Source of the DNA: Tubiluchus corallicola
Lineage: Eukaryota; Animalia; Priapulida
DNA: 64,000 nucleotides
Assembly (NCBI GenBank): GCA_030141605.1
Contig: JAQGDQ010000329.1
Span: 186,001-250,000, forward strand
Direction: 5' to 3'
Shown: positions 12,485 through 50,437 of the stretch, piece by piece
Numbering within the stretch: the first letter of the stretch is position 1
Layout of the letters: every line of letters begins with the position of its first letter
The notes under the pieces: generated by a model
The model's input: only the letters and a program-made list of their open reading frames with translations
Databases searched by the model: none
What the model was told of the DNA's origin: nothing
Position numbers and translations under genes: made by a program

Positions 12485-13378
12485 ATGGCGGTGGTAATAC
12501 GTTTTGTGGAAAGTGCATCATTTTGTACTCAACTGATTTCTAAGAATAGTACACACCTAATCAAAGTTAATTTCTCAACCCATAAGACTTCCTGCTTTAA
12601 CTTTCATAAACAGTTTTTGCTAAGCACTCGTTTAAGAGGCTTGATGTCTCAGGCTGCAAAAAATATTTGTGGGTTTGGATTACGTGATTACCAGCTTTGT
12701 CAAATCGCGGCGAAACGAAGTGCACATTGTGAAACAGGCACAGAGGGCAAGATGTGGTATTCAAGTAGCAACTACAAAAATGATGACAGTTCAACTGAAA
12801 AGCAATTTAAAATGAAACTTATGGATGTAGAGCACATATTGTGGCCAAATATATGGAAAACAATAAGAAATCGAATCTACTACAAGCTTGTGCAAATATA
12901 TTTTGACAATAAATTTACAATATCAGAATTTGCAGAAGGTGCAAAACAGGCATTTGTCTACGTTTCTGATCTAATAGCTGGTGGAAGATTTGATGAACTT
13001 GAAGCGAAACAGCTTGTGTCTAAGGAGGCACTTAGTGAGATAAAGTCAAACTTTAGCAAGCTTAGTGTCCAGCAGAAAATGTTGTTGTCTGTCCCCCTCA
13101 CAGATATTTACTTAGCATTTCCTTATGAAGCCGGAATTATATACGATGAAGAAAGACAGGAGAGGTTTTTAGAAATCATGATGGTTTTCCACTGCTTTCG
13201 GGGATTTAAGGAATTCAAAGAACAATCTGAAGCAGACTTAAACATACAGAAACACAAATCCAACATTACCATAGCAAATTACCGATTTGTGAGAGAATAC
13301 ACAAAAGGTAAAGAAGACCAAGGCTGGACAATCAACCTGCTTAACCACATTCGACCAGCAGAACACACATCATATTAA
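12485..13378 (+). CDS. MAIP1: m-AAA protease-interacting protein 1-like (MAIP1/C2orf47), mitochondrial; intronless CDS, 297 aa
   Basis: Uninterrupted ORF with a basic, hydroxylated N-terminus typical of a presequence. Motifs YFDNKFTISEFAEGAKQAF, LVSKEAL, HKSNITIANYRFVREYTKG and WTI resemble the MAIP1 family (Tim44-like fold). AATAAA follows at about 13448. Confidence 0.8.
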   Translation: MAVVIRFVESASFCTQLISKNSTHLIKVNFSTHKTSCFNFHKQFLLSTRLRGLMSQAAKNICGFGLRDYQLCQIAAKRSAHCETGTEGKMWYSSSNYKNDDSSTEKQFKMKLMDVEHILWPNIWKTIRNRIYYKLVQIYFDNKFTISEFAEGAKQAFVYVSDLIAGGRFDELEAKQLVSKEALSEIKSNFSKLSVQQKMLLSVPLTDIYLAFPYEAGIIYDEERQERFLEIMMVFHCFRGFKEFKEQSEADLNIQKHKSNITIANYRFVREYTKGKEDQGWTINLLNHIRPAEHTSY

Positions 13379-22867: not shown

Positions 22868-22987
22868 GACTACGGCCAAATCACGTTGAAAACACCGGTT
22901 CTCGTCTGATCACCGAAGTTCAGCAACGTAGAGCCTAGTTAGTACTTGGATGGGTGACCGCCTAGGAATACCAGGTGCTGTAAGCTT
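22868..22987 (+). rRNA. 5S rRNA-like sequence (head of the SINE; probably not a canonical 5S gene)
   Basis: GACTACGGCCAAATCACGTTGAAAACACCGGTTCTCGTCTGATCACCGAAGTTCAGCAACGTAGAGCCTAGTTAGTACTTGGATGGGTGACCGCCTAGGAATACCAGGTGCTGTAAGCTT is a full-length 5S with recognisable box A and box C. The terminal stem is imperfect and only TT follows. Confidence 0.8.
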
Positions 22988-24986: not shown

Positions 24987-25857
24987 ATGTCAGATAAACA
25001 TGGTCGTTCATCAAGTTTAAATATAGTGGAGGTAATTACGGAGTAACATTAGCCAATGCTGGGATGGCTATTTTCCGAGGTTTAGTTAACAGATATCTGA
25101 GATAGTGTTGCATGACCAAGGCATAAGTTTACTACGTCACACTACTTTTCATTAGTCATTACTCCTTTAAATTAATTAATTGATCATCACTGCATCACGT
25201 AATTTAAAAGTACTTGAGTTGGTGTGTGTGATTGGATAACGTATGTTTTTAGCCACCGCTTTCCATTTGTCTGGCTATCTGTTCATTGTACTAATTTCGT
25301 GTATATATTACTTTGGGATAAAAATGAAATGATGTAGTTGGTTTTGATTTGAGACATGTTACTGTTGCCATTCATCTCTATACAATATTACTGCTAACAA
25401 AAAGCAGCAAAATGTAGCACACAGAGTAGCTGTCAGCTGCGTCACAGTTGGACGGACCATATCAAACAAGAAAACATTGGTCAAGCTTCTTGCTATGAAA
25501 CCTTGCTGCTTTGTTTTTTATTTTTGTTCTGTTCTTTGAGATTCTTTTGCATCAGACTTTACTTTCCAGAATATGCATTGCTCTTTGTGTAATATAGTAA
25601 ACTTTGTAAGAATTAGTATTTAGCCTGGTAGGCCTCTTTTTTGTTTCTCTCTGCAAAATGTACTTAAAATTTAAATTTTATTGATGCTGGCATTGACCCG
25701 TATGTGACCTTGAACTCAGCCTTGTTTGAAATGTTCAACCTCCACCTCAATACAAAATTTATTTGGGGCTACAGCCCAGATCATTACTATAATTTTTCAT
25801 AACTATTTTTGCTTATAAGGATTTTTTAAAAAGACCTACCATTCCCACTTTACAACT

Positions 25858-25899
<42 letters not shown>

Positions 25900-28800
25900 A
25901 AATAGTTAAGTTTGATTTGCATATTTTGCAGGCTTCCACTGGCTATGGCTCAGAATTTGAATATGATAGTGAACGAGAAAGAAAACGGTATGGTAATTAG
26001 ACTTCATCACAGACTGTATAGTGACATTAATGTCTGCTAAATACTAAATGTTTTTTATATTAGGAATAGGAATCCCCGAAGGCACATTTTCATCAAGCAA
26101 ATCAAAGCCAATTTTTTATGCTTGATTGTCATTCTACCGAAGTTCATCCGCGTAATCTGTGTTGTACTGAGCCTAGTTCCGAATAAAATATCAAGTTAAA
26201 GTGGAACATCTGAACAGAGCCAAGCCGAATTTTTTACTGAAACCGAATTGAATTTTCTTGTAATATATTACTTAGAATGCAAACATTCCAGCAATTGAAA
26301 GGAATTGTAAAATTTGTGACATTTAAATCGTTTTAAATTGGTAGTGGTTAGTGATCTCTGTAAAATTGTTCTGGTTGCTGAATCTGTGTTTTTATTTAAT
26401 GATTAATGTAGTAAGGCATTACATATTTTAAAACATTTTAATTATTTAAAAAGCAGTCTAAGCTTTCACTAATTTATTTTCTCATGTACAAGCGAATACT
26501 CTGCGACCACACTATTGTGCATTGACACTCATGAGTTGGATAGGGACCTACTGATGGTGCATCACACTTTTCAAGTTGTACAGAAACAGTACAAAAACAG
26601 AAACAAAATGTCTGGTGTTGTGCCATGTTGGCTGTTTACTATCACCTTTTTTCTGATAAGTTTTTGAGAGTAGCAGGCAAATATTTGGTCTGTTTAATAT
26701 CATTTTCACAAAATGTTACCATAAGCTTTTTCATGTTACCACGATAATATTACCAATGATTGATGATGATCGTAAAAAGGTCAAAGGTTAAGTGTACCAA
26801 ACAGCGTATTTGTGTACACTTGACAATGCCTCCCAACCCAAGCTACTATAATACTAACAGTTTTAACAGCTAACTGGATAACTCTACGCACAGACTAATG
26901 CATAATTAAAGTCCACTTAAAACAGCTGAAGTTACTAAACTGATATGGGAGACGGCTTTGTTTACCCACATTTCACGTGACTATTGTACTTAAGACACGT
27001 TGCTGTGGTACATTTAACCTTTGACCTACAGCAACTGTGAGTGTGCACAACGAAACTGTGAAATGATATACATACATACTTACGTTATATGTGCATTGTC
27101 ACAAAGACATGCTTTCCAGCTGTTTAACTTTGCAACTTTTTAGTGTACAGTCCAGAAAGTATGCCAAAATTCAAAAGCCTTTTCCTCTTTTAATACCGTT
27201 ACAACATAATTTGTTTATATTTCGCCAGACGTGTTTGCTGTTTACATCTTTTTTCTGCTGGATAGATGTAATTTTACATGAATGTCACCATTTTATATCA
27301 GGTTAGTTATGCATGTCTATTGCTACTACTTTTTCTAACTTGTATGTTCAGTTGATGCTCAGGTAACTTTTTCTTCTCATTTCAGTTTTAAGAGGAATGA
27401 TCTAACTGCAAAAGAACCCATCCGAGCTGAGAATACTTGTTCGTCGAAGAAACATTATGAAAAAGAGCTTAAGAGGTTGGCCCATTTTAACAGTTTGGGG
27501 TGATGATTTATAAATAAAATGTAATTTTGGCAATCCTAACAAACCATGTAATTATATTTAAAGCATCACTTTAGTCATAAAATGAAATTCTAGTACCTGT
27601 AGAAGTTGAGCACCAGGTTCATTTGATGTATTAATCCCTGATTGCGTTATCAGACCAGTCAGTTTTATCATCTTATTTATTTTTTGAGTTGTTTTGAGCA
27701 TAACAATAATTGGTTATTCTTATTCATCCTGTCCTCTGTCTGTTTGCTCATGCCACTGTTTTATTTGTCACTTAGTAAATTAAAATTAGCAAAAATTTGC
27801 TCATTTATTCTAACTATACCGGTTCATATCTGTGTCTGACTTTGTCTAAGAAATCCATCATGTAAAATGTTATTTTTACAATTTTTTAAGAATGAAACGT
27901 CGAGCTAGGAGTGCATCCCCAGTGCATGAGCGAACAGACAGGGTAAAGTCGCACAACCGAAAGAAAAGACATCACCATAATGATATGAACCAAGAGCCTG
28001 ACAGTGACGAACATGAATCAGACCGGTCTTCACACAGAAAAAAACGCAAGAGGCGATCGCCAATCATAAAGAGAGAGCCTTCGGCAGACCTAGATCCCAA
28101 TCTGCCAATCAAAACTGAGCCTGTGGATAATGGTTATGGTAGACGTTCACATTCGAGGCAGGATAGCCAAGATGTTAGTCGGCTTCATGACAAAGACGAT
28201 AAAAATAAAAAGGCAAAATCAACTGAAAAACAAAAGCCAAATTTCGAAATCAGTGGTAAACTTGCAGAGGACACTAACACATATCGTGGAGTTGTAATAA
28301 AGTACAACCAACCGCCGGAAGCAAGAAGGCCCAAAACTCGTTGGAGGTTGTATCCGTTTAAGGGAGAAGCTACACTCCCTGTGCTGTATGTACATCGTCA
28401 AAGTGCGTATCTACTTGGTAGAGATCGACTAGTGGCTGATATACCTGTTGATCATCCGTCGTGTTCAAAGCAGCATGCAGTGTTGCAGTTTCGGCTGGTG
28501 AACTATAACCGAGAAGATGGAACAGTTGGTCGTAGAGTCAGGCCATTCATAATTGATCTGGAGTCAGCTAACGGCACGTTTGTAAATAACAAAAAAATTG
28601 AGTCCAGGGTTTATGTAGAATTGATGGAAAAAGATGTGCTGAAGTTTGGCTACAGTTCTCGTGAATATGTGCTGCTGCATGAACAGTCCAAAGATGATGA
28701 AGCTGATCACGAGGATGCTGACTAATTTGACTTATTTGCTTATTTCAAATTCTTATCTTGTGTTTTTGACTAAGAAGTTAGACATTCTTAAACATGTGTA

Positions 28801-31800
28801 ATTAGACCTTTGAAGTCTAGGGCTCTTTAGGATAAAATGGCAACATCATTGCAGCAACTTTTATCGATAATTGAATTGATCTGTCTATGTCTCCATTATT
28901 AAATGAAAATATGTGAACAGTATGTCCTGAAACATTTTAAACATTATTGTTTGTATAGTTTCAGTTAGATCGCATGGCATTTATGAAAGTTATATAGTTT
29001 AAACGGGCAATTTGGTCATGGAACTATTGAAACATACAACCTGTCAATTCGACTTCTAACTTGAATATTTGTTGGCTAAGCTGCAAAACTTATTATTTTT
29101 TCTCAGTTTTAAAAATTTCTGTTTTATCCCAATCGTGTCACTATGTGAAATGTGTTGTTGTCGCCTGAACATTTTTTGCTGTAAATAACTAATAAATGTA
29201 GAAAGAAACATGAGCTGTCTTGTGTTAAACATATCACTTAATTTGCTGATGTAGTGCATTTTGACGAAGTTCTATAGCAATGCAACAACTTTGTGTATGC
29301 AAACATGTAGTACAGTAGATTCTATTCAAGTGAGTCGCAATTTTCCATAGCTTCTTATTTCCAATGTTTATAAACAACCGATGATACACCTTCCTAAGTA
29401 TGGCCTTTGATGTGCTAACACTAAAATTTTTATTCGTAGAATTAAGAAAGTTTCATAACTACAATATACATACAACACAAAATTATCATTAAAATGTTTC
29501 CTGGCACAGATATAGGAACTTCCGAAAATAAACAAGCACTTTGAATTGACTTGTACACTTAGCAACACCTTAGTAGCAGTTCATTAAAATCAATAAATAG
29601 TTCGTTACAAGAATTTGCAAATTTTGTGAATGTTGCATCAGAACATTTCTTAGTGGCATCATCCAGTGACAGTTAGTTACAATTTTTTGTAGCAGTCTGG
29701 AATGCAATATGTGTAGCAATTGTTTAGTTTTATAACCAAAACTTTGAAATAGATTTAAAATATCAATTCATGTGTACGCACTTGTTGCCACTCACTTTAA
29801 TGATTAGTCAAACGCTTCCAGTTATTAAATTGTCCATAAAATGTGCCAAGACGTTATACTTGAAATCACTGTGATGGCTAATGAAGGCGGCAGCATTTGT
29901 TTTGTTTTTGACAGTCATAACAGCATGAATTTATATCTTACTGGCATGCAAAATTGCTACAGCTATTTTTTTCAGTACTTGTAGAATTGTAATTCAGAAT
30001 TTCTTTGTTATAGGTACCAAGGGCAGCCATACAAATTTAGCACTTCTGGCTTAGATGCTGTATCCATTTTGGTAAACTAGGGACAAGATTTCTTCAGTTA
30101 ACATCAAATTCACAGAGGAATTTAGTGGCCCTTTTGTGGTTTATCATTTTGAAAAGTGTAGGCCTTTGTTAGTACATCATAAATTGGCTTTACTGTTTGT
30201 TTAACTGCTTGAAGCATAGCAGACTTATCATGATAGCAGAATAATGTGTTATTTGATTATAATTTAATACTGATTATGTGCAAAATGTTTCATGGTTTCT
30301 ATTAGTAAAACCTCCTTATACTGCTCGCTATGCGACTCTAGAAAAAGCTGACATTAAGCAAGTTTGGCGTGATGATGAGATGCATTAATACATACATGTC
30401 TATGCAAATATGGACATTTTCTTTTATCAAAAAATTGGGTGTTAAACGAGGTTAGCATTATAAATGCGGGCTATATAACGAGGTTTGGCTGCATTATATT
30501 TTAGTAATTCACAACATTTTCTTAACACTTCTGTCAGTTCACAAGGCATAAACTCTTAGTCAACAACTACTTACTTTATTATCCTGGTGCCAGAGAAGAA
30601 CATTTCAAACGAGATTCGTAAGTTTTAATCATTCTGAAACTCATGTTATTTAACATTGTTGATCGTCAAACTAACAGTTATTAAATATAGATAGACTAAA
30701 TTTTTTATACTTACTTTATTCAGTCATTCTCCTTTATCAAATGGTGTCGGCCCACTTTAAAACTGCACGCTTTCATTTCAGAATAAGTGAAGTTTTACTT
30801 GTGTTTTCTATTCACATGGTGATTGAGGATTGATTTTTTCTAAACAAGAATGCCAATTCTTTGCTTCTGGGTTATGTGTTAACAAACTGTGTAGGTTAAG
30901 GAAAAATTCATGATGGGGTTTCACTTTAACAGCAGGAAATATTTTTGGTTTTCCTCATCCTGAAAAAATTGTCATTTTCTGTGCCTTTTAATCCCAAAAT
31001 TCAACGTGTTTAGGTCAAAAGACAAAAAGGACATAGACGTCATCAGAGAGCATCATCAGTTTCTCTGGCGTGAAGATGACGATACTGACAGTTTGTGGTA
31101 AATTTCTAACAAGGTTTTGCCTAAATTTGTGATAGTGATTCTTACTAAAACTTACGTTAAACTCAAAAGGCAGTCAGTAGCCGTATGCATTTAACAGTGG
31201 TGTTTAGTACATTGTTTACACAATATTGTTTCACTCTTGTCAAAGTTTATGTTGGCATCTATAGGCATCTATGGTAAAGTAAAGGTGCAAATGGCAAAAC
31301 TGAAAAATTAACATTAAAGTGGTTCACAGTAAAATGGTAAACAATAAGCATGGAGATGTTTTTCGTAAATAATTCTGAAAGTAGTCATTTTCTTGCAGGG
31401 AAAAGAGGCTCGCAAAGAAATACTATGACAAGCTTTTTAAAGAGTACTGTATCTGTGATCTTTCTCGATATAAAGAAAATAAGGTGATTAGTGATGTGCG
31501 GGTGCACTTAGTTGTTATACAACTGAAGAATCATGGTTTCTTAGTTTGTTATTCAAAAAAGATGTTTTCTTTGTATCCTTGACTGTCAGTCATTTTACCT
31601 TAACTAGCACAAAAAAATTATCTATAATTATTCATTTGCAGTTGATACTTCTTGTAGGTAATGTAACCTGTGTTCATTCGTATAACATTATTGCATCTAC
31701 ATTGTTAGCCATCCTAAAAATCTCAGTTTTATTCTTAAGGTTGCAATGAGATGGAGAATAGAAGCTGAAGTAATATCTGGAAAAGGTACGTTTGATATCC

Positions 31801-34800
31801 CATTCGTTGTACATTCATTGTATTGGGAGTTGCAAGTTTTGCAAAATATTTGCAAGTTGCAGGTCTGCGCATGGTCAGAAATGTCATTGTTCTACAAGAA
31901 TCTATGGGACTCATTTTTAAATTGTATTTATAAATATACAGTCTAGCCTCGTTATCTCGCCCCTCGTTATGCCGCCAAACTCGTCTCTCGCCATAGATTT
32001 TACCAGGACGGATTTCCTGCTTTGATATTTACCTCGTTAAATTGCCACCCTCGCCACGTCATGCTAGGATGAGTACTTAGGTAAACTATATTCGTTATGT
32101 CGCCAAACAGACAAACTCAGAGGTGAATCGATCAATACATATACTGCGTGTGGATCAATATAACCGCGGTATGTAGACAATGCTGCTGTACTCAACAGAC
32201 AGACATAATTAATCTAGTGTGTGTCTCACCAGGATTAGATTAGGAGTGCTGTGGTTGGTTAATGCGCAGAGAAACTAAAGCGTCACCGATATCCTTACTC
32301 TATAACACCAAAGCTGCGTTTAAGTTTGAGTTTCCACAAAGTGTGAGCAACTTTACATGATGTCTCTGAAGCGAAAACTGTTTTGTCTTAATCCTGAACA
32401 AAAAAAGGAAATTTGTATTTATCATACGAACGGGCAGGCCGCGGGCAGCAGCGATGAAGATGACACGGGCAGTTGCGATGAAGACGATGGCTCATCTCAT
32501 GTATCGAATGACCAGGCAGCAGCAGCTGTCGACACACTGATGCGATATTTTGAACAGTCTGACATCGTCACAAGTGACGATATTCAAGGATTGTGTGTAT
32601 CATCAATGAAACAGTCGTCTCTTCTGAATTATTTCAGTCGTCAGTATCTCATTTGTGAACATTTCTAAATCTTTTGCTATGTTTATTGCATTTAAGTGTA
32701 TACTCGAAAAAGGTTTTTTAAATAAAAAAATAACATTCTAAGATTATTTTTATGACATTTTTTTCATTTCTGATTTAATGTTGATTGGTATCATAATGCG
32801 AAATATATTTTATATGTACATAGAGGAACACTATGTTAATCAACTATTATGTACAGTATGTATATACATATAGACTAACTTCGTTATATCACCGTTATCT
32901 CGCCATACTCGCCTCTCGCTAAAAATTTGCCCTAGACAGACAGGGGCGAGTATACTGTTAGACTGTATATGTTAATACAATGTTAATGGCCCTGTTGCAG
33001 ATATACGCTTCGCTCGGCGATGAGGTATTGAAAAAAAGTACAAGCGCTCACGGTACGTCGTCCACACTTAGTGCATTTATATAATGAATAAACTTTCTGT
33101 GCACTTTTTACATTAGTTGTCTGACTAGTTTATATGACCACCAGTGAACACAAAAAAGGGACCTCAGAACGAGTCAACGGACTGCCGTGCAGTCACATAC
33201 AATATACACTTAGTGTGCCAATAGGAAAGAATAAAGTTTTGCAAACTGATGTTTGATGGGAAATGCGTAAGATTTGGGTTATCATAATAAGTCTTTTCAC
33301 AGTCTTCACAGGTCAAAGGTTATGTGTACCATATCAGTGTGTCTTAACTATAACCATCACACAGCATGTGCGTAAAGCAAAGCCATCTGCTCTGTACCAA
33401 TTCAGTAATTCACGGTTGTTTTACATGGGCTTTACTTAATTATGCATTATTCTGTGCGTAGAGTGATTTACTAGCAGGATCTTGCTTGGGAACAAGAAAA
33501 AATTAACTGGGTGAGGTTCTCGGTAGCTGTTAAAACTGTTACTATTATAATGGCTTGGGCCATGAGGTGTTGTCAAGTGTACACAAATGCGTTGTCTGGT
33601 ACACTTAACTTTTGAGCTTTTCGCAATCATCATCAATCACTGGAACTGTGAAAAAGCTTATTATGTTAAGTCAAACTGTTATGCTTAAAGGCACTTAGAG
33701 GTTGATGTGGGTGTGAATACTTAATTTTAAATAAGGAATAGGCAGAGTTTCCTTACTGTGTATGACCTGAAAGCTTGTAACGAGGCAGATTCAACCCTGT
33801 GAGTTTACTCGACATTACGTGTCATTTGACAATCAAAGATGGCAAATGACAGCTTCGAGTCACTTGATGGCAATTTCTAGGACATGTCTAAGAAAAGCTC
33901 GATGCTATATTTAATAAAAAATAATAAAACCACAATGGCTCATTTTTTACTAGTCAAGGTTTCCCACATTTCTAAGCTTTTGTAGGACACTTTCAATGCG
34001 GAAATAACAAGTGCAACAACACAGAATCGCTTAGGTCTTGGGAGGTCAATTTTGGATATGTGGAACATGGAGAGAAGAAGAATGCTCTAGTCAAACTAAG
34101 TATGTAACTATGATATTTCATTAAACTGAGACAAAACATATCTTTCTTACTAGAGATCCATATATGAATAGACTATAGGCTTATTAACACAGATCGAATA
34201 ATTCAAAGTAACCCACTCCGCATTTACCCAATGCCACAAATAAGTAAACACAATATACTGGGCACTTATAAAATTGCACTGGTAACTGTGATTAATGATT
34301 GTATCAATGATTAAATGTATTGTATGAACTGCATTGATTGTAGGCATATAGTATTCTATTATATCGTACGGTAATGTATTGTTTTAAATCAATAATACAG
34401 TAGGCACCGCTTAATAGACTCACTTTGGGACCGAAGTGTTTTGACCCAATTAACCGACTGAACCTATTAACCGATGGGTGTAGTATTCCTGGTATAGAAG
34501 TTTGAGTCACCAGCTTACTATGCAAAAGTTTTTAATGAATTTTAGAAACGAAGTAATGCCTAAATTTCTTTGTGCAGTTAAAAATTAAAAAATGTATTTT
34601 AAAATATCAAATATTAATTTATATAACTGAATTAGCAATGCATTAAAAAGTATACTTTTCTAAATCAGACAAGTCTGTTTATTTGCAAAAATTACAAAAA
34701 TTCCTTCAAAGTCAGCTGTTTCATTTCATCGCAAAGAAGTTGGCTCACAAAGTTCTCATAATGACAAAAACATTGAAAATCTGTTGTACGATGCATAAAT

Positions 34801-36604
34801 TCTCGTAAAACACTTAGTGCTTGGCGTGCTTAAATTGTTGGTGATGCCCACGTTTCCCCGCAAGTAGCTTCGTCTGTAGTTTTGCCTAAGCTTCTGCTTG
34901 CTATTGTGACACACTTACTGTACTGTACCTGTATCCCAGGCATAATGGCAAGATCTACCTGGTTAAACTTTCTGGCAAAGACAGCCTCAAAGGCAAACCG
35001 CTAAGCAAGTGATTAAATGTTTAGCCTCCAGGAATTCTTGGGTAACGAGGTTAATTGCAGTAGATGTGCTGGTCAAAGGAAACCATCAGGCTAGCATATT
35101 AGCGTATGATAAACGTTCCTGCTTACAACAGACCAAACGGTACTTAACATGATTATTTCTATGTATATTATAGGACAAAAGCGAACTAAGATGATGTGAA
35201 AGTCATAAAAGCTTATTAGTCACACGAAAGTGTCTTACTGAAGTCAGTTATTGTATTGTATTGAATAATGGCTGCATAAAATGATCGTGACTCTCTTTTC
35301 TATTGTAAATGCAACTGAACCTGCTTAATAAATCAATGATTTTTGTGTTATGATAGTTCAATTAGTCAGTGTGGATGGTATTAATTGTGTGATTAGCTTT
35401 CATTTGGTTTGTTCTGCTACTTTAGTTTAGTATTTTCATGTGCTCCTTGAACAACAGTTTTTTTCAAATACCAGTTTTTTATCTGTGATAAATTGCTGTT
35501 CATTAACTTCCTTATCATACACAACTGTTATTCAGTATAATAGTAAATAAAGATTATTCTATCTATCTAGGAATTGGGAAAGTGCATTAATAAAAACCAT
35601 TAGCCATGTGCTTTGCTTTATTTTTGTAGGATTATGCCTGGACTGCTCTTACATGCTGAATTATCATCATAAGTAAGTAAACATTTTCTCGTATAGTTAC
35701 TGAGTTAAATATCTTAGCAATGTATTGTGTTTTAGGTTAATTCATTTTATTAGTAGGCTGTATTTTTTGTTCATTTTCCAGAAGAAAAGATGTAACAAAC
35801 AAGCGAAAAAAGAAAATCCTTACTCACCATGGTGTTGATGAATTGACATCTACACCTGCTACCACTTCGAAGGGTAAGCATCATGGTTTACATCTCCCAG
35901 CAAATCTGTACAAGAAAACTTGTTCACTTTTGTAAAAATTATAAATCATCTGGATTTTTTCAGACATTCCGTCTTCATCAAATAAAGGTACAATTTCATC
36001 AGAACAATCTGAAGATGAACCAGACCAGGTTGCAGAGTCTGCAGAAGATATATGGAAAGCGCCAGTTAAATTCACAGAAGATAAAACAAGGTTACATTTC
36101 ATTTACTTTCTGCATTTTGCATTCTTTTAAAAAATTTTGGTAATAGTTAGGGTATGAACAGAAACTGGAAAATTCTACTTGCACAAAATTTTAAAATTAA
36201 ATTGTTTGGATGAATATATACTTTATCAAATGTTTCAGTATTTGATTAGAGTGTATCAATATATCAAAGAATATTTCGCTACCCCAAGAAGACGTGTCAT
36301 TATATATCATGAATGCATTAAAAGTAGTACATACTTCTTTTGTTTTGAAGATTCCTGGTAAGGGAAAGGTGCTGTTTGTTTGCTTTTCTGCAATGTTAAA
36401 TGTGTCTTTATGTTCTACTTCTAATTATGTGTAAGTGTGAACAGTTTCTAATGCCTTAATCAAGTGCAGTAACGATGACAACCAGTAATTATCCTTTTAT
36501 TCTTTGTAAGCTTATATATAATGTTGTGCCGTTGTTTTATTTACTGTCTTTATTTTTTTAGGAATGAAGAATTTGAAGAATATTTTGAAGACCTGTTCTT
36601 ATAA
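24987..36604 (+). CDS. FRA10AC1: Protein FRA10AC1 homolog (spliceosomal C-complex-associated), 316 aa, 13 exons
   Basis: Exons 24987-25031, 25932-25987, 27386-27475, 30014-30059, 30538-30617, 31014-31097, 31399-31483, 31740-31785, 33986-34099, 35630-35672, 35782-35873, 35964-36090, 36562-36604; 951 nt, open throughout. Peptides DIDVIREHHQFLW, WEKRLAKKYYDKLFKEYCICDLSRYKENK, RWRIEAEVISGKGHFQCGN, LRSWEVNFGYVEHGEKKNALVKLRLC and C-terminal EEFEEYFEDLFL* match FRA10AC1. Exon 1 is inferred from ATG, phase and a GAG|GTAATT donor only. Confidence 0.93.
25864..25893. repeat. (TA)n microsatellite
   Basis: About 15 TA units just upstream of FRA10AC1 exon 2. Confidence 0.9.
26720..27026 (+). mobile_element. 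MITE-like dispersed repeat, copy 1 (inverted relative to the copy at 33311-33665)
   Basis: Internal inverted repeats GGTCAAAGGTTAAGTGTACCA...TGGTACATTTAACCTTTGACC. The body aligns by eye with the reverse complement of 33311-33665. Confidence 0.7.
27892..28725 (+). CDS. SNIP1: Smad nuclear-interacting protein 1 (SNIP1/Pml1, FHA domain, RES complex); single coding exon nested on the same strand in FRA10AC1 intron 3
   Basis: 277-aa ORF with a basic/RS-like N-terminus, then KPNFEISGKLAEDTNTYRGVVIKYNQPPEARRPKTRWRLYPFKGE and the FHA motifs LLGRDR..ADIPVDHPSCSKQHAVLQFR, IIDLESANGTFVN and KFGYSSREYVLL. It is preceded by an acceptor (tttttacaattttttaag|A ATG). Candidate poly(A) signals: ATTAAA 28898, AATAAA 29191 and 29592. 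Confidence 0.96.
   Translation: MKRRARSASPVHERTDRVKSHNRKKRHHHNDMNQEPDSDEHESDRSSHRKKRKRRSPIIKREPSADLDPNLPIKTEPVDNGYGRRSHSRQDSQDVSRLHDKDDKNKKAKSTEKQKPNFEISGKLAEDTNTYRGVVIKYNQPPEARRPKTRWRLYPFKGEATLPVLYVHRQSAYLLGRDRLVADIPVDHPSCSKQHAVLQFRLVNYNREDGTVGRRVRPFIIDLESANGTFVNNKKIESRVYVELMEKDVLKFGYSSREYVLLHEQSKDDEADHEDAD
30060..30537 (+). other. Probable U12-type intron of FRA10AC1 (intron 4)
   Basis: The donor GTATCCATT is one mismatch from GTATCCTTT. A branch-site-like TTTTCTTAAC ends 11 nt before the exon start, with no long pyrimidine tract between. This is the U12 3'-end architecture. Confidence 0.7.
30303..30492 (-). mobile_element. ~190-bp pogo/Tigger-type MITE family, copy 1
   Basis: Ends TAGTAAAACCTCCTTATA...TATAACGAGGTTTGGCTG. 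The reverse complement matches the copies at about 60655-60808 and 62281-62420 (shared atatttgcataga..tgtatgtattaat core). Confidence 0.7.
31939..32965 (+). mobile_element. Internally deleted pogo/Tigger-type DNA transposon with a transposase remnant ORF (32357-32668)
   Basis: Termini TA-CAGTCTAGC...GTTAGACTG-TA with repeated subterminal CTCGTTAT/CTCGCC motifs. The ORF joins a CENP-B/Tigger-like start (KRKLFCLNPEQKKEI) to a Tigger-like end (AVDTLMRYFEQ...KQSSLLNYFS) and lacks the DDE domain. Confidence 0.8.
33311..33665 (-). mobile_element. MITE-like dispersed repeat, copy 2
   Basis: GGTCAAAGGTTATGTGTACCA...TGGTACACTTAACTTTTGAGC; reverse-complement homolog of 26720-27026. Confidence 0.7.
34398..35245. 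mobile_element. Second, right-truncated copy of the 20093-21067 element
   Basis: Starts TA-CAGTAGGCACCGCTTAATAGACTCACTTTGGGACC and is colinear with the 20093 copy for about 850 bp. No right TIR is visible, so the end is approximate. Confidence 0.85.
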
Positions 36605-37929
36605 CAACAGACATTTCTAAAAGTGCAGTTTATCAAAAGTTTTGGAAGTATCCCCTTCTACATAAGCTTTGCTTAGTCATCAGTCACCTTACTGTATACT
36701 AAAAGTTGTCGATAACCTGTTGTGCAAAGTGCATTAGTGGTGGCACTTATTGATTTTTCGCTAAATTTAGGTATTTTTTTATAACTGAACATTCAGAGTG
36801 ATTTAATTATTGATATTATTGAGAATTTTTAACAGCTGTTATCTACACCAACGGGAATTTAGCGGAAACGTACTGTCTTGTGAAACTGGAGATCCACTTA
36901 CTATTTCCATAAGACACGCTGAGATATGTAAATTAGGTTTTAAAAATGTTGATTATGACTTAATGTGAATAAAGCAAGTGTGTAGTGATATTCAGAGAGA
37001 GCCTGCTGCTGGTTATTAAATACGCCGTAAGCACATTAAAATGTATGACAATGAAATATGTACTTTCATGGTATTTTTGACCTAAAGTCATTTTCCATGG
37101 ATTAATCATGACTGTTAGTAGATATTATAATATCAGTAACATGTAGAGCAGAATAGAATAAATTTATTATGCAATAATGAATACAATCAATACGATAATA
37201 ATAATAATGATTGAAATGTTATTGTAAGGAGGAAGTACTTTTTATCCTTCCTCCTACAGGTGATTACAATAACTGACAATATTAATTTATAACTACTTAA
37301 ATTCATTTTAAAAGCAAACTGTAAATTTCAGGAAACCGGTGAAAATTTAGGGAACAGCTTTTACCTCACTGTGTCTTAACAACAGATAAACACTTAAACA
37401 ACTGAAAAGCTCTGAAAAAACTATTCTCAGTCACCAACAATAACTCTTAAAGCAGATACATCTAGAACACACTTATTGGATATATTATGAATAATGATGA
37501 AATGGAATTTATTTAATTGATTATTTTAAACTTAAACATTTTAAATTCAATTAATGTAGAATTAAATTTAATTCAATTGTGTAGAATATCTAATTAATAT
37601 AGTACAACAGATTTTTGTTTAATAATCAGCATTTTATTGGTTTTGTTGTTGTTGTATCGGATATCATCTTTGGAAGAATGCTCCATTCTCAGTACCAAAC
37701 ATTTAGCTATTTTACAAATACTAACTAAACACTCGTTGATTAACATTTGAAAAACAATGGAATTCAAAGAATTTAGCAATGCATTGTCAGATGTCAGAAG
37801 CAACTGGCACTGATTCCTAAAACTCACAGAAATATAATGCTTACTGTAGTATAATTAATTTTTGTGGTCTGATACAGGTACATGTAATTGCCCAAAGTTT
37901 TATGATTCACGTTTGTAAATTGCTCGAAT

Positions 37930-41930: not shown

Positions 41931-42479
41931 GTTGTTACTTTGTCTCTTTGGGTTAAATTGCCTATACAAAAAATTGGTTAAAACGATGGTAATTATTTGT
42001 TTGTTAATGTAAGTAACCTTAGATTATTTTTACTTCAGTTATAAGATGTGCGAAACGAAACAAAGGTTTTGTATATTAGGCACTGAGTATAACCCCGAGA
42101 GACAAACTAACGACAATTCTGTCAATTCATGATACGCTTATTGTGACAAAACTGCATCTTAAAATTTCATTTATATTTAAACTTCTTATGTTTGGTGATC
42201 TTTCCTGAAATGAATAAACAAAATGTCTAGTCTTTAGTCAGCTGATAGTTGATACTGAAATTGCTGTTTCTGATTCTGATAAAGCAAGTAATATTGCCAA
42301 TTCTCTCAATTTACCAAGGCTCTCAATCTTCACTGTAGCTTAATGTTACAGCAATGCTGCAATAGTAAGTAACAGTCATGCATGATAAATCAATATGTCT
42401 GTCATAATATCCACAGAGCCCTTCAAGTTTCTAAAGCTTCTCGTGTTTATACACTGTACCTTTTCAATGTGTTTCAGCT

Positions 42480-45400
42480 ATGACAGATATCAGGAGGAGG
42501 TACTTTGTCAACAAGCTCGCTGACTACAAGGAAGGACACATTGTCGTCGATAAAGAAAAATGGACGGAACGAATCATTTACTTGGTCAATAATATTACAA
42601 AGGATCAACCGGCTAAACTAGACCACTGTGATGGGGGTCTGTATGTGGGTTGTGCAGGTATTTCCTACACACTTTTTAGTCTGGCAAGATATGGTGCATT
42701 TAAAGACAATGAGACCATGCTGCTGAAAGCTGCTGAGAGTTATGCCACCACGGCGTTTCAGTTTGCGCAACTTCCAGAAAATAAGAATGACCAGCAGATG
42801 AGGTCTTCATTTTTGCTGGGCAACCTGGGTGCCTATGCTGTCGCTGCCGTTGTGTATAATGCTATTGGTCGTGATGATTTGACAGCAACGTGTTTAACTG
42901 AGTATGCACTGGCTGCGAATCTTGTAACACCAACACATTTCTTACGTTGCGGATCTGATGAACTGTTTGTTGGCAGAGCTGGCTACCTGTGTGGTCTACT
43001 AATGTTGCATAAATTCACTGGACAACAGGTAAAGCTTTTAAAACCCTGCATGGCATTGCCAAAAACACTACTTGTTTTAAATTACCAAATAGAATTTGAT
43101 TGTTAATGCACTGTAGGAACTTACACTCATTTTCTCATTCATTATTACTATTTTCTTTAGACATTTTTTATCTTCACACAAAGCAGTCTATAAAATATTG
43201 ATATAATAAATGGCAATTTTTTCAACATTACATTTATCTCAGAAGTTCTATACAACATACAAAATTAATATGTTTATAATATGCATATAAAGTCACACTC
43301 ACACACACGCATGCATGCACGCACACACGCGCGCACACACATGTCAACAGAAAAACCTTATTGTGTAAGGTTATGCTAGGACTAGTACCTTGCTCGTGAA
43401 GTTTAGTCCGCTAAGATTGCCACGTTCAGATTACCAGAATCAGTATGGAGAATGGAATCTTTAGCCTGACTCAACCATCTATTTACAGACTAGAGACTCC
43501 GTGTTGCTTAACTTGTGGTGCTCAGCAAAAATCGTGATCGCTCATCTATTCTCCTTGCCCTCATGCTTTTAAAACTAGACTAAAAATTCAAGCTGTCGAT
43601 CACGTGCATTGTCTTCAACATGCACATGATGACTCACACCTTCCTAGGCTCCTAGCTGACATAAGGAATCTGGTCTACCAGACGTTTGCTTCTGTGTGAA
43701 CAATATTGTCAACTAGAAGGATCTCACTCTGTGGTAAGCTTTGAAAACAACCCCTTTGGCATTTGATTTGTTCTGATACGCTTTCGGCAAAACCAAGTTG
43801 AACGTTTGTGTTTCATGTTTAGGCCTTTATGGTTTACATACGTTTAATATTAATTGCTACACATACATGTATGCTATGCATCTGGTAAAACTTTGCCTCT
43901 TGAATACAGGTGGTAAGCCAAGAACTGGTTGATGAAATTTGCTCTGCAATAATCAAGTCTGGTAAGGAATACTCAAAGCGTCATCGATCACCATCGCCTC
44001 TTATGTATGCTTACTATGACACAGAGTATATAGGTAAATTCCTAAGTTAAGGTACTTTAAATTTAGTTTGTGAGATATGAGAACCGTTGTTATTAACTTT
44101 TTATTTTGTCAAATGAATTTCTTATAAAATTCTGTTTGTTCAAAATTTTTGGGGCATATTTGGTTTACAAAATGTTTAACTCGAAGTTATATGCAAATTT
44201 TTGATGCTGATTTATCTTATAAAACACGAAAAAAGAGAGCTTATTTTTTAAAATCCGAGTTTATAGTGACAGTAAAATGTTAAACAGATACCACAGTGTA
44301 CACGTTTAATTTTAAAGTCTTGTTTCCTTGTTTATGTTATCTTTGTTAACAGGACCTGCGCATGGCATAGCTGGTATTCTGCAGATGTTGCTGTGTTTTC
44401 CCGAATTTGTTAAAAAGGATCCGACTGTGGAGAAACTAGTCAGAGAATCAGTTGAATTTATATTGTCTTTAGAGCAATCGAATCACAATTATCCAGCAGG
44501 CATGGATGAAGTGAGTTTCTCATTTATTTTAGTCTTAATTCTTAATCACATTCTTACCTATTAACAGCTAACATTTAAAGAAGAAGAAAATGAAATTTTG
44601 AAGTATATCTAAAGAACTTTCCAAACAAAGTTATATTACTTATTATTTCGCTTAAACTTTTGAAAGATTTATGTAACTGGAAAAGAAAATTCTGAATGAC
44701 TTACTATATTCACTTCACCTGGTGAAATGGCACTACATTCCAATGCGCACCACAGATTCATCAAAAAACACATTAATTTTATTGACAATATAAAGTAATT
44801 TAAACCTTTGCTTAGCAAAGATTGTGCTACGAATGTTCTGATTATTTTTTCAAACTTACTGCAATGTTAAGTATACTTGTTTCAAACGACTTATTGTTAA
44901 AATGGCTGCACCTAAAGGTCATCACGGGAATTTAAGTTTAATAAGCTTTATACAACGTTACTCGTTAACGTTACAATGTTAACGAAGCTCGTTGTCCTAT
45001 AAGAGGGCATGTAACTGATGTAGCAGTAAAATTTCAAGGCAAATTTCTTAAGCTTGATTTATGAAGAGTGTTTTCTTGTACTTTAACTGTCTTTGGCATT
45101 ATCCAGGATGCTTACAATATCCTGATATTGTTCTACAAAATTTTGAATTTTTTAGAGTGCAATATCAATTTTCACCACAGCAAGTAGTATTTGCCTACTG
45201 CTGCTGCTGCAGCTGTCAAGATACAAAAGTTCAAACACGATAATCCATTGATCTGACACTGATATGCTTGCTTGTGTCAGCTTTACATTTTGGGCGTGAA
45301 GTTCTTGCTGCTTCTTAACACTGCTGGCTAGGCTTTGTTTGTTCTTGTTCAACTGAATCAATACTGTGAGCTGGATAAATTGCTTTTTAACCAAAAGTCT

Positions 45401-48400
45401 GAAACTGCAGCAGCTAATTCGGGGCAATTGCCTCAGAAACCACTGTCATTAATTAAACTGTTGATGTGGTGCCTTGGTTTTAAAGGCCAAATACAGCATA
45501 TTTTATGAAGTTTCAGTTTTGCACAAAAGCAGAAAGAAAATGCGATTTTCTGATACTTTTAACTTCTTCTTGGATAATTTATATAAGAGGGAAGTTGAAA
45601 GAAAAGTGTCATTTGCAAAGAAAGTGTGGAATTTTATCTCGCACATTTTGCTCGTTGGATGGCACCAGCAAAATATTCCCTTAGGTTACGGTGGCATTTT
45701 TGTTTGGTTATCTCTGTGTAGCATTGTTTACAAATTCAGAATCACAGAATCGATGCGTTATCCAAGGAAGCCGTTTCTAGCACTTGTTTTTAGCCTGCGA
45801 TTTTCCGAAGTTTCACAAGCAAAACCGAACAAAATGTTTTGGAGAAAATGCAACTTCGAGACCAGATTTCATTAGGAAGGAAGCCTAGAAATTTAATAAA
45901 ATCTGTATCAAATTTTAAGTTACACTTAGCTCTTTTTATTAAAGAAAACTTGTGTTTACGTTAAATTTGTGTTTATGTTACCTTTAAAAACATAATCTGT
46001 GATAAGCCTGACATAACTTTCCTGGGCATGCGGTTTACTGTAGTTGTGCAAAAATCCATTGGGACATTATAATAGCTTGTTTTCTGAAACTCAGAAAGAT
46101 CACTTTCAGGTAATGAACTCGTATCAAAAATTTTCTGATCCTGAATTCACAACTTTACAGTTACCTAGCTCTGATTGCCCATGCTGCTAGAGTACCACTT
46201 TGGTAGCTACATAATAATTAGATTTATACAAAGTGCATGCTTAATGCACAAAGACTAGTGTAATGCATTAATGAGTTGCCATTGTTATATTAAAATTCTA
46301 TTCAAAACTTTTTTGGATAAAGAAAAATCAGTGGTGTAATGAAGTATGTCATTAATTTCTTTTCCTCCAAAGAACCATTCTGCATGAGTAATGAATTGTT
46401 TTCTGAATTTCTTGCTCTCATGGCGTTTTTTATGCAAAAAAAATCATTTTAGATTGCTAAATGGTCTTTTTGTTTTGTCATATATTAATAAGTAAGTAAG
46501 ATCTCAATTTAAACTTTATTTCAACAATGAGCAAAACTGCTTTACATGTCTCTTGAGTGTAAAATAGATCTCAATTTAAACTTTATTTCAACAATGAGCA
46601 AAACTGCTTTACATGACTGTTGAGTGTAAAATACACTAACTGCACAATATATACACAGTAAATTATAAAACAGTCTATTTTAACCATATAACATATGACC
46701 CATCTGAGTTATTCATGAAGAATACATCTCACTGTAGGTTTTTGAGCACTTCTTGTTAATATCATAGTTTTCAACGTTTTCAATTAGAATGTAAGCCAGT
46801 TGATGTTACAGGTTACTTCTAGAAGACCCGAAGAAGAAGAATTGGTTCACTGGTGTCATGGTGCTCCTGGTAAATAACTTACTAGACTAGTTTTTTTTTT
46901 TTTTTATTTAACATAGACCTGTAACTAAGATTTTATTTGATATGCACTGGTACATTATAAATTTGGTTACTTATAAGTAATGATTTAATATAGTCTAGAA
47001 GCTATTTGAATAAATTTAATGTGATTTAATTTGGTTCAATGCAACATGTGCAAAGTGTAAAATTATCCATGTGACTTGGATTAAGCGATCACAATTATGT
47101 CATTTGAATTTTGTAATTGATATATGGTATAAAATAACTTAGTATGTTAGGAATCTTACGGTCCAAGCGAACTTTGTTAACGCTGTCTCGCTACATTTTT
47201 TCTGAAAGCCTGAAGTTAAAGCTGAATCAGTGTTTCTGGAAATACAATTTAATGCCTTTACTTGGGGTGAGCATAGTCTACCAGAAAGTGAAATTGAATT
47301 GAATTTGTAGAACTTTGTTAAAATTATGCTGTCTCGTTACATTTTTTCTGAAAGCCTGAAGTTAAAGCTGAATCAGTGTTTCTGGAAATACAATTTAATG
47401 CCTTTACTTGGGGTGAGCATAGTCTACCAGAAAGCGAAATTGAATTGAATCTGTAACTTTCAGGCTTGAATTAAGCTGTATTTCAGCATATTCGAATCCA
47501 AATCGAATTTGAATACAGTTATGAAGATTTTTGAATGACTAATAAAAAGCGGTCTCACAAAGATCATGCATACTACTTGATTTCATTCAGAAGTACAAAC
47601 ACTAATAATTAGTTGAAAATTGTGCTGATTGTGTGATGTTTCAATGTTTTCATGATAATGAATGTTTGTAGTTGCAGTGCTCGATTGTTTAAATCTATAA
47701 TTTTAGATTTGAATCAAATTAGAACTAAAACAACTCTTTCAAATCAAATTCGAGGGTCGATGCTCACACCTAGTCTTTACGACCATGTGTGAGTAAAAAT
47801 AATTTGTACACAATTTGTTTCGTGCTTAGGGAACGTATCAGCTAAACAGCAAGTACATAGAAGCAAGCATAGTTATGCAAAAGTTTTGCCAAAGTACATA
47901 CTTTTTTTTTATAAAGCCGACTCACAAACCGATAGGAATATGTTACAAATTTTAAAGATATGTAAAGATATTCATTATCCGTCAATTATTTTTGTTTACA
48001 TTTGTCACTTTGAGTGCAGTATGTTTGCATTTCATTATAACAAGTCTCAGAAATGAACACCACCTTTCCACCTTTTTTGGAGTTTATAAAAGAATTAAGG
48101 TAAAGATTTTTCACATTTTGAATGTCTGTGGCAACATCGTTGCGGCATACCATTCAATTTTATGCAGACCAATCAGTAGCTGAAAAACGTTTCGGTAAAC
48201 ACATAATTCAGTGCAAAATCCCAATGATATTATTGATTTTAGTGTTTTTGATTATTAATAAGCAAAATATTAGTATTTTTATTCTGTTTTATTAGTAGTC
48301 TTATAATAGTAAAATAATTCTGAGCACTAATGATGATGTAATGGATGCTGCACAGATTTCCAGGTTTCCACACAAACGCTGAAGTAAATAACTCATTTAT

Positions 48401-50437
48401 GTTGTTGGTCTTTCTCACTGGCTATAAGGATTTTAAATGATACAAATTTGGCGATACAACAACGATACAATACTTTTTTCCAGTGATATCGATAACCTGT
48501 TTTTCAGATGATACGATCAATTATTTCAAATGATAACAACGATACTGAACTGGATACTCACTGTATTGAAACACCACATGTTTGCAGGCTGTCCTCCAGT
48601 TAAAGCATAGATATATGTAACCTATGACAAAGTTCTCTTCTTTATCTAGTCGTAGAATAATATTAATATGTGCGCTACAACAGATAAATATATTACGTAT
48701 AGATTTAATACTACAGTAACTGCCTGAATGTAACTGGAAAAATGCCTCTAAAAATGCCACACTTGACATTCATGTGTCACTAAACCGACTGAAGACAACT
48801 GCTATTGCAAGAAGAAAGTACAAGAAGATTACTGAACAACCTTATTGAATTAACTAAATCTCTTTTAATTTCTGGCATAATTTTGTGTCATAACTGAAAA
48901 AGCAAAGTGAAATGATTTTATGAAGGTGAGCAGTAGCAGGGATGTGCAGCAGATTTGATACCATAACAGTTAAACAAATTTTTTGTATCTATATGACATT
49001 CGATAATTATGGAGTTATTGTTAACATTTCTACTTACTATAACAAGCAATGTGACTTGGCATTGCCAGCTAATGAGTCCATCTTTAAAATAAACTGTAAC
49101 ATAAGTAATAAAGCAATATGCATACAGTCTGCTAAGGTAAACTGGATAGCCAATGGTCACAGCATTTGTATCACAACTGAAATTGAGCAATGTTGAGAGC
49201 TTGAGGCTGGTCATTGAGTGACTCTTGATCACCCGAGTTCAATACTCACTGTCGACGGTTTTATTAGCTGTATTGATTGTGGTATGTTGAGAGAAGATGG
49301 ATACTATTCAAACATAGCTACGACATCTCTGCCGATATGGTGACCAATCATAAAGAGATATCGTTGACAGTGAGCAAGGTTCCAGTTTTGCAATAATGTC
49401 AAAATTAAGTAGGCCCTGCCATTGAGTGCTAGATTCCAGCTTGCAGTGTGGCAAAGTATGTACAAAGATCCTTAGCTAAAAACAGAATGTACATAAAAAG
49501 TCAAACATTATATAAACATCAATAAACTTTTTTTAGCTTGTACTCAATAACTGATTTTTGCTGTTTTTAAACTCGTCTTGAAACCTATCTCATTTCCATA
49601 ACGTTTAGTTAGTGTGCCTGATGAGTTTTTATTGTGTGCTTTATTTTTTATTTTTATTGCACTCATTTTTAATTGTAAGCCTGTATTATGGTGCAATTGA
49701 TGACAATAATTGGTCGATTTCTGTGCTCTACAAATAAAATATCATTATCATTATAAACAATGTAGATAGGTACAAACAACACACAGACAACTACAGCAAC
49801 AATATTATATATATATATATATATAATATAAAAACTTAACACAAATTTAGTTCTTAATGACAAGAATAACAACAAAATAATGATATAGAAAAACCACAAA
49901 ATGTTAGTACTGGCATCATGTGATTTTCTTTTGTCACCTGATGATAAATGCTGCAGCGGTTTGAAACTTTCTTTTCATTGTTGTAAGTGTTTAACTTTTT
50001 AATAGTTGACAAACCTATAATGTACTGCAATTTTTGACTTTATCATAACGTGATTATGTCTTTTTATAGGTGTAGTTTATATGTTTGCAAGAGCCTACCT
50101 GTTCTGGAAAGATAACAAATATCTGGAGGCTTGCAGACGATGTGCGGATTTCACTTGGGAACGGGGTTTACTGTTGAAAGGTCCGGGTATTTGTCATGGG
50201 GTTGCCGGTAGCGGGTATGTCTTTCTGCTTTTATATCGACTCACCGGCGAACAAAAGTACTTACATAGGGCTAATTTATTTGCTGAGTTCATCTTCACCG
50301 ATGCATTTAGGAAGTACACTAGAACACCTGATAGCCCGTACAGCTTGTTTGAGGGTTATGCAGGTACTGTTTTGTTCCTTGCTGATTTGCTGGAACCAGA
50401 CAATGCTTCTTTTCCATTTTTTAATGTCTTCTTGTAA
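42480..50437 (+). CDS. LANCL3: LanC-like protein 3 (LANCL3), 418 aa, 5 coding exons
   Basis: Exons 42480-43028, 43910-44033, 44353-44510, 46812-46869, 50070-50437; 1257 nt in frame. Motifs GGLYVGCAGI, GSDELFVGRAGYL, PLMYAYYDTEYIGPAHG, LVHWCHGAPG, KGPGICHGVAGSGYVFLLLYRLTG and PYSLFEG are present, with the LanC Zn-binding WCHG and CHG motifs intact. Confidence 0.94.
46499..46632. repeat. ~67-bp tandem duplication in LANCL3 intron 3
   Basis: agatctcaatttaaactttatttcaacaatgagcaaaactgctttacatg..ttgagtgtaaaat occurs twice, nearly identical. Confidence 0.85.
47170..47456. repeat. ~141-bp tandem duplication in LANCL3 intron 4
   Basis: aactttgttaa..gctgtctcg.tacattttttctgaaagcctgaag...gaaattgaattgaat occurs twice with few differences. 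Confidence 0.85.

Follow-up and report, generated by a model that had tools for sequence, protein, structure and literature searches.

A FRA10AC1 gene hosting SNIP1 in Tubiluchus corallicola

The window analysed here, 64,000 nucleotides of contig JAQGDQ010000329.1 from the priapulid Tubiluchus corallicola, is A+T-rich, with about 34% GC, and its protein matches have an animal character. It contains a FRA10AC1 gene of 13 coding exons (24987-36605, + strand), whose predicted product of 316 aa carries Pfam PF09725 and shares 86% identity with P0121 from end to end; no PDB match was found for FRA10AC1. Coding exon 1 (24987..25031, +) holds the start codon and matches the N-terminus of P0121, so that the label "exon 4", under which the original prediction had introduced a very small exon further downstream, fits. 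Exon 2 (25932..25987, +) and exon 3 (27386..27475, +) follow, and the U2-type donor of the latter, GAG/GTTGGC, is the point at which two isoforms branch. SNIP1 lies within FRA10AC1 intron 3, on the same strand, as a single intronless exon (27891..28725 up to the stop codon, +), identified by the Pfam FHA domain (PF00498), a PDB match to human SNIP1, a spliced joint in X2 and its reading frame. This frame (27892-28725) starts with an ATG of its own at 27892, the first codon of the exon, and is in frame with exon 3. The intronless SNIP1 is likely a retrocopy that would have reached the locus by retroposition. Candidate polyadenylation hexamers for SNIP1 span 28898..29597 (+), namely ATTAAA at 28898 and AATAAA at 29191, 29527 and 29592, 422-1116 nt before exon 4; the three AATAAA copies in 28726-30013 are close to chance, 1.5 being expected by shuffling, and thus constitute a weak signal.

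Exon 4 (30014..30059, +), supported by an X2 contig and the gene model, is 46 nt long, runs from phase 2 to phase 0 and is the first FRA10AC1-specific exon. Intron 4 (30060..30537, +; 478 nt) separates it from exon 5 (30538..30617, +), which is supported by an X2 contig and by alignment. The remaining exons, all on the + strand, were taken from the P0121-matching model: exons 6-9 at 31014-31097, 31399-31483, 31740-31785 and 33986-34099, and exons 10-13 at 35630-35672, 35782-35873, 35964-36090 and 36562-36605. The introns between exons 6-13 are without U12 motifs. A candidate exon at 33001-33052 was discarded, as the FRA10AC1 model matches P0121 without it.

Several further features were observed in the window. 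A second intronless reading frame of 297 aa at 12485-13378 resembles m-AAA protease-interacting protein 1 (Atlas score 0.95) and is possibly another retrocopy. A single 5S rRNA copy (22868-22986; Rfam RF00001, 97.3 bits) precedes FRA10AC1 exon 1 by about 2 kb, and exons of a LanC-like (LANCL) gene occupy 42435-50434, with PF05147 on the first large exon.

SNIP1 is spliced in frame to FRA10AC1 exon 3

The RNA support is derived from one run, X2, with one contig per splice event; X2 comes from a related source, its RNA label is a guess, and the divergence between its exon pieces and the window is ~2-9%. One contig comprises the end of exon 2, as a 10-letter loose end identical to the last letters of that exon, and continues through exon 3 into SNIP1, of which it covers the first 142 nt, with position 27475 joined to 27891 across a GT..AG intron. 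The reading frame continues across this joint, giving a predicted protein of 341 aa, residues 1-64 of which are from FRA10AC1. Exons 2 and 3 are shared by the two genes, and exon 1 is predicted to be common to both mRNAs. A second contig joins 30059 to 30538, removing intron 4 exactly, and 30617 to 31014. The joint between exons 3 and 4 is not among the X2 contigs listed; it rests on the continuous reading frame of P0121 and on 22 unplaced letters that, by their coordinates, precede exon 4 in the X2 record. Neither retention of intron 4 nor skipping of exon 4 or of exons 4 and 5 occurs among the X2 contigs listed; since contigs drop rare forms, this blank carries no weight. The original prediction that FRA10AC1 competes with SNIP1 is borne out insofar as SNIP1 is spliced in frame to exon 3, whereas redirection by minor-spliceosome activity is a hypothesis.

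An unspliced X1 contig (29680-30179) has one listed difference from the window, at 29813, and none at the intron 4 donor. The X1 unspliced contigs over exon 3 and SNIP1 (27155-28888) have depths of 114 and 73, as opposed to 6-22 in the other listed single-copy X1 pieces, several of them also exonic; a bias from exon capture or from amplification could account for this. Pieces of high-copy repeats with very high X1 depth and loose ends are found at 30364-30432, inside intron 4, at about 26500-27100 and at 31900-35200.

The two acceptors available to the exon 3 donor differ in position and composition. The donor itself agrees with the U1 consensus at 5/9 positions, which is on the weak side for a U2 donor of this gene. 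The SNIP1 acceptor is 415 nt away and the exon 4 acceptor 2538 nt, which places the former 2123 nt nearer. Pyrimidines make up 15/20 positions before the SNIP1 acceptor versus 12/20 before that of exon 4, and by pyrimidine content the SNIP1 acceptor ranks in the top 5 of the 150 AG sites of intron 3.

Within the reach of the databases, exon sharing between FRA10AC1 and SNIP1 appears to be lineage-restricted. A profile built from the N-termini of 40 FRA10AC1 proteins detected a FRA10AC1-like N-terminus in none of 267 SNIP1 homologues (120 of 3598 plus 147 further ones), while both positive controls were found (E 6e-6 and 1.3e-7). Searching with residues 1-64 of P0121 returned P0121 alone, among 8 candidates. 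A tblastn search with SNIP1 against 63 FRA10AC1 loci, for which the positive control worked, gave no match, many of these loci being transcripts or including little of intron 3. A shared locus was also absent from the titles and abstract openings of the papers listed for both gene names.

The arrangement as such has a precedent. This is a locus of the Su(var)3-9/eIF-2gamma kind, in which a guest in a host intron is spliced in frame to the 5' coding exons of the host, with a common promoter predicted. As described in the consulted part of PMC4528330, Su(var)3-9/eIF-2gamma, listed by FlyBase under "Genes with CDS overlap", likewise places an unrelated gene in a host intron, and no isoform has both domains. 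Host and guest there have their promoter, start codon and first 80 residues in common; for the locus here the same is predicted, with 64 residues. It differs in involving other genes, whereas the locus here contains two annotated splicing factors, and the next intron of the host is U12-type. FRA10AC1/SNIP1 exon sharing is a new case, and the CDS-sharing kind of nested gene was already known.

Intron 4 is U12-type by motif and orthology

A 46-nt exon followed by a U12-like intron had been proposed from the letters of this stretch. The exon (30014-30059), the donor GTATCCATT at 30060 (30060..30068, +) and the AG at 30536-30537 were all confirmed, as was a U12-type branch site near the acceptor (30516..30527, +), where TTTTCTTAAC starts at 30517. 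The predicted branch A at 30525 falls at -13, within the 11-13 nt given as optimal in the consulted part of PMC3584512.

U12 scoring relied on consensus matching and look-up of catalogued motifs, using the consensus sequences RTATCCTTT for the donor and TTCCTTAAC for the branch site, with 9 positions each. Intron 4 matched 8/9 on both motifs and was the only such intron among the 12 coding-region introns of the gene, the other 11 reaching at most 6/9 on either motif. On the + strand, 10/3684 GT sites and 7/3434 AG sites score at least 8/9, a joint frequency of ~5.5e-6 if the two are independent. The donor 9-mer is present identically in 10 cells of the MIDB table, e.g. for PTEN and PPP2R2A, and the 12-mer of the branch site is identical to that of the human and mouse LSM5 minor intron, with an MIDB score of 84.3. 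By these catalogued scores the branch site is no weaker than those of human and mouse FRA10AC1, which score 77.5 and 69.8, respectively. The 15/20 pyrimidines before the intron 4 acceptor, within the range of 11-17 of the other 11 introns, largely represent the branch site itself.

Scanning by motif found no convincing second pair of U12 donor and branch site in the window, and Rfam found no minor snRNA in it. A lone U12-like donor, GTATCCGTTT, occurs at 28350 in the SNIP1 coding sequence, where it is explained by the codons, and X2 has A at its first base. Another, GTATCCTTGA, lies at 31573 within intron 7, and a search of the sequence downstream gave no branch site to match it.

Conservation of the minor intron and exon 4

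Human and mouse FRA10AC1 are both catalogued as containing a minor intron, with the donor GCT/GTATCCTTT (MIDB; supplementary files 1 and 8 of PMC6717393, as far as consulted). In our alignment the donor-adjacent Ala codon (GCT) of human and mouse falls on the last codon of exon 4, orthology being matched via the exonic GCT and protein alignment rather than by alignment of human genomic DNA. Among 63 FRA10AC1 loci, an acceptor at the codon of intron 4 was found in 12, and for eight of these a donor as well, leaving four acceptor-bearing loci (L029, L039, L040 and L050) at which no donor was found. The intron is U12-type in five of the eight (L036, L037, L053, L057 and L061), representing about three independent organisms. 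It had been proposed to check whether this intron is U12-type in other animals; it is so in the human and mouse entries, and in 5/8 of the genomic loci. Intron 4 itself was thus already known, given that the catalogued minor intron interrupts the gene at this very Ala codon and that the intron is U12-type in these loci.

The other three, GC-rich loci have a U2-type donor and no U12 branch site at the same position (L025:9650-9749, L031:2450-2549 and L035:5937-6025), a state consistent with conversion from U12 to U2. The human and mouse introns agree with intron 4 in codon, phase 0, GT-AG ends and the presence of U12 donor and branch site, in the consulted part of the catalogue (MIDB; PMC6717393). 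They differ in that +7 is T there and A here, in the higher score of the branch site here, via its catalogued twin, and in that an entire second gene occupies the upstream intron here.

An exon of identical length, 46 nt, and identical phases is predicted in L053, L057 and L061, whereas intron 3 is absent from L036 and L037; exon 4 and the minor intron would thus predate the insertion of SNIP1. In L036 (1558-1767) and L037 (773-982) the 210 nt that precede the U12 donor form an open frame, and both loci appear to have lost introns 2 and 3 while keeping the minor intron. Exon 4 had been called tiny, which is right for its 46 nt, but neither is the size distinctive, since the internal FRA10AC1 coding exons range from 43 to 127 nt and 3/11 have at most 46 nt, nor is it derived, the size being ancestral.

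The exon 4 donor agrees with the U1 consensus at 3/9 positions, the lowest value of the 12 donors, and no cryptic U2 donor of at least 6/9 was found in 30014-30260; thus, only U11 can define exon 4 from its 3' side. Exons 4 and 5 together have 126 nt and are in frame. The 16-residue peptide of exon 4 has a mean identity of 0.23 to seven distant homologues, which share 0.61 among themselves, and no other of the first 10 exons has an identity gap as large. This divergence could reflect either new splicing constraints or a relaxed protein constraint.

Discussion

The locus combines a choice of terminal exon with a minor intron further downstream, and two known systems are useful for comparison. 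In SRSF10, according to the consulted portions of PMC7244321 and PMC8329584, a polyadenylated upstream exon spliced by the major spliceosome is likewise set against a full-length mRNA needing the minor spliceosome. There, however, U12 and U2 donors compete within one exon and the short product is non-functional, whereas here two U2 acceptors compete, the U12 intron follows one exon later and each product is a full protein. The U2 donor of exon 3 is the partner of either acceptor, 27890 or 30013, and no U12 branch site is present in intron 3 (best match 5/9), unlike the nested U2/U12 competition of the SRSF10 and prospero kind. The second system consists of the USSE-controlled genes RNPC3 (65K) and SNRNP48, which involve the cross-exon contact of U11/U12 to U2AF on which a switch at our locus would depend; in RNPC3, U11 drives the choice of terminal exon (PMC5473595, as far as consulted). 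A USSE, however, is a tandem repeat of non-spliced U12 donors, while the donor here is single and really spliced, and no pair of RTATCY within 40 nt was found near exon 4 or the SNIP1 acceptor.

We consider it probable that the minor intron acts only after the choice between SNIP1 and FRA10AC1, limiting the yield of FRA10AC1, so that any shift in their ratio would be passive. The choice would be made at the exon 3 donor by ordinary competition between the SNIP1 acceptor with polyadenylation and read-through to exon 4, and transcripts that read through would then need the minor spliceosome. When this is slow, intron 4 would be retained, the in-frame TAG at 30078..30080 (+), a predicted premature stop, would be read, and the mRNA is predicted to decay. 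The SNIP1:FRA10AC1 ratio would rise passively, with no additional SNIP1 mRNA. The SNIP1 acceptor, nearer than that of exon 4 and at least as pyrimidine-rich, speaks for this order, and the candidate poly(A) hexamers, situated 468-1162 nt ahead of the U12 donor, would be transcribed before the U11 site exists. Data on the human orthologue point in the same direction. Its minor-spliceosome dependence has been shown (bioRxiv 10.1101/2020.07.18.209528; PMC8034651), and in the consulted data of PMC8034651 the orthologous intron was retained at 0.33-0.70 in RNU4ATAC patients as opposed to 0.08-0.17 in controls (p = 0.013). Intron retention is also the typical outcome of minor-splicing defects, as stated in the part of PMC8329584 consulted. 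Human FRA10AC1 does not occur in Datasets S2, S3 and S6 of PMC8034651, the tables on alternative splicing (124, 62 and 179 rows, as consulted), in which gene-name labels were confirmed by PHB2 for S2 and S6, but not for S3. It is missing from Dataset S1, the morpholino retention table, too, and its blank in S2 may therefore reflect coverage. Human FRA10AC1 is not known to have a terminal exon that competes from further upstream, and for this reason its behaviour may not transfer to the priapulid locus.

The original prediction can be extended to an active switch, which we consider unlikely: U11/U12 at 30060 would bridge to U2AF at 30013 and favour exon 4 over definition of the SNIP1 terminal exon, and low activity would divert transcripts to SNIP1. 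That U11/U12 can contribute to the definition of an upstream exon, as had been stated, is published (PMC8034651 and PMC8329584, in the parts consulted); bridging operates in RNPC3 and SNRNP48 (PMC8329584; PMC5473595) and genome-wide (PMC8034651), and SRSF10 offers a case in which minor versus major splicing picks a polyadenylated exon. In some genes, flanking exons are skipped more often when the minor spliceosome is inhibited (PMC8034651, as far as consulted), and since U11/U12-U2AF bridging across the upstream exon has been demonstrated and loss of U11 raises such skipping, an active effect is possible. The poor fit of the exon 4 donor to U1, the lack of a nearby cryptic U2 donor in 30014-30260 and the modest exon 4 acceptor all suit such a switch. 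The PDB match does so as well: the matched human SNIP1 is a chain of 7dvq, the activated minor spliceosome, and as a subunit of this complex SNIP1 would close a feedback loop.

Against it, exon 4 and its minor intron are ancestral rather than adapted, and no tandem USSE-like element lies near exon 4, the sole close RTATCY pair in the locus being at 31773/31795. If exon 4 definition failed, skipping of exons 4 and 5 together, in frame, would be equally open; to our knowledge, moreover, SNIP1 is not specific to the minor spliceosome. Published data weigh on the same side: in the consulted part of PMC8034651 skipping of both flanking exons was up in 29/30 such events upon U11 knockout, and the human orthologue is listed there for retention only, while PMC8329584, as far as consulted, describes flanking interactions as still without evidence of a regulatory role. 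A passive shift of the ratio through loss of FRA10AC1 is hence the likelier course, and active rerouting to SNIP1 is doubtful. An unchanged isoform ratio, which had been named as refuting the prediction, does not separate the two models, because the ratio also moves passively when FRA10AC1 mRNA is lost to retention.

Two other readings would remove the coupling altogether. The two genes could be largely independent, with SNIP1 made mostly from its own promoter or from ATG 27892 and the exon 3 junction as a side product entailing little competition. SNIP1 does keep an ATG at the first codon of its exon, and the P0121 contig has an unbroken FRA10AC1 reading frame; but the X2 contig in which the SNIP1 exon begins represents the spliced form, with exons 2 and 3 ahead of SNIP1, and the in-frame join and the high rank of the SNIP1 acceptor among the AG sites of intron 3 (top 5/150) make such independence decidedly unlikely. 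Alternatively, intron 4 could keep U12-like signals and yet be removed by the major spliceosome, as a conversion intermediate, or the lineage could be without a minor spliceosome. The deviation from human at donor +7, the GT-AG ends, the window's lack of a minor snRNA or of another convincing U12 pair, and the conversion at the same position in L025, L031 and L035 would fit. We regard this reading as highly improbable, since both U12 signals are at catalogued strength, the donor fits U1 poorly (3/9) and an unused branch site would have been eroded by drift.

The passive model thus retains our preference, and the locus offers a means of comparing it with a switch: here a failed cross-exon contact has a ready, productive alternative output, so that the switch and passive models give different, countable results. 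The locus also calls for caution in annotation, as the combination of a GT-AG minor intron with a nested last exon is easily mis-modelled. Among the papers listed for the minor spliceosome together with intronic polyadenylation, no title or abstract opening gave a precedent. We know of no described minor-spliceosome switch between two genes, the described ones being between a productive and an unproductive isoform or between two isoforms of one protein. It is rather improbable that a single transcription unit yields one or the other of two unrelated splicing proteins according to U11/U12 occupancy on exon 4, in a homeostatic circuit where weak minor splicing would yield more SNIP1. If this were true, a gene fusion would have linked an ancestral minor intron to SNIP1, itself part of the activated minor spliceosome.
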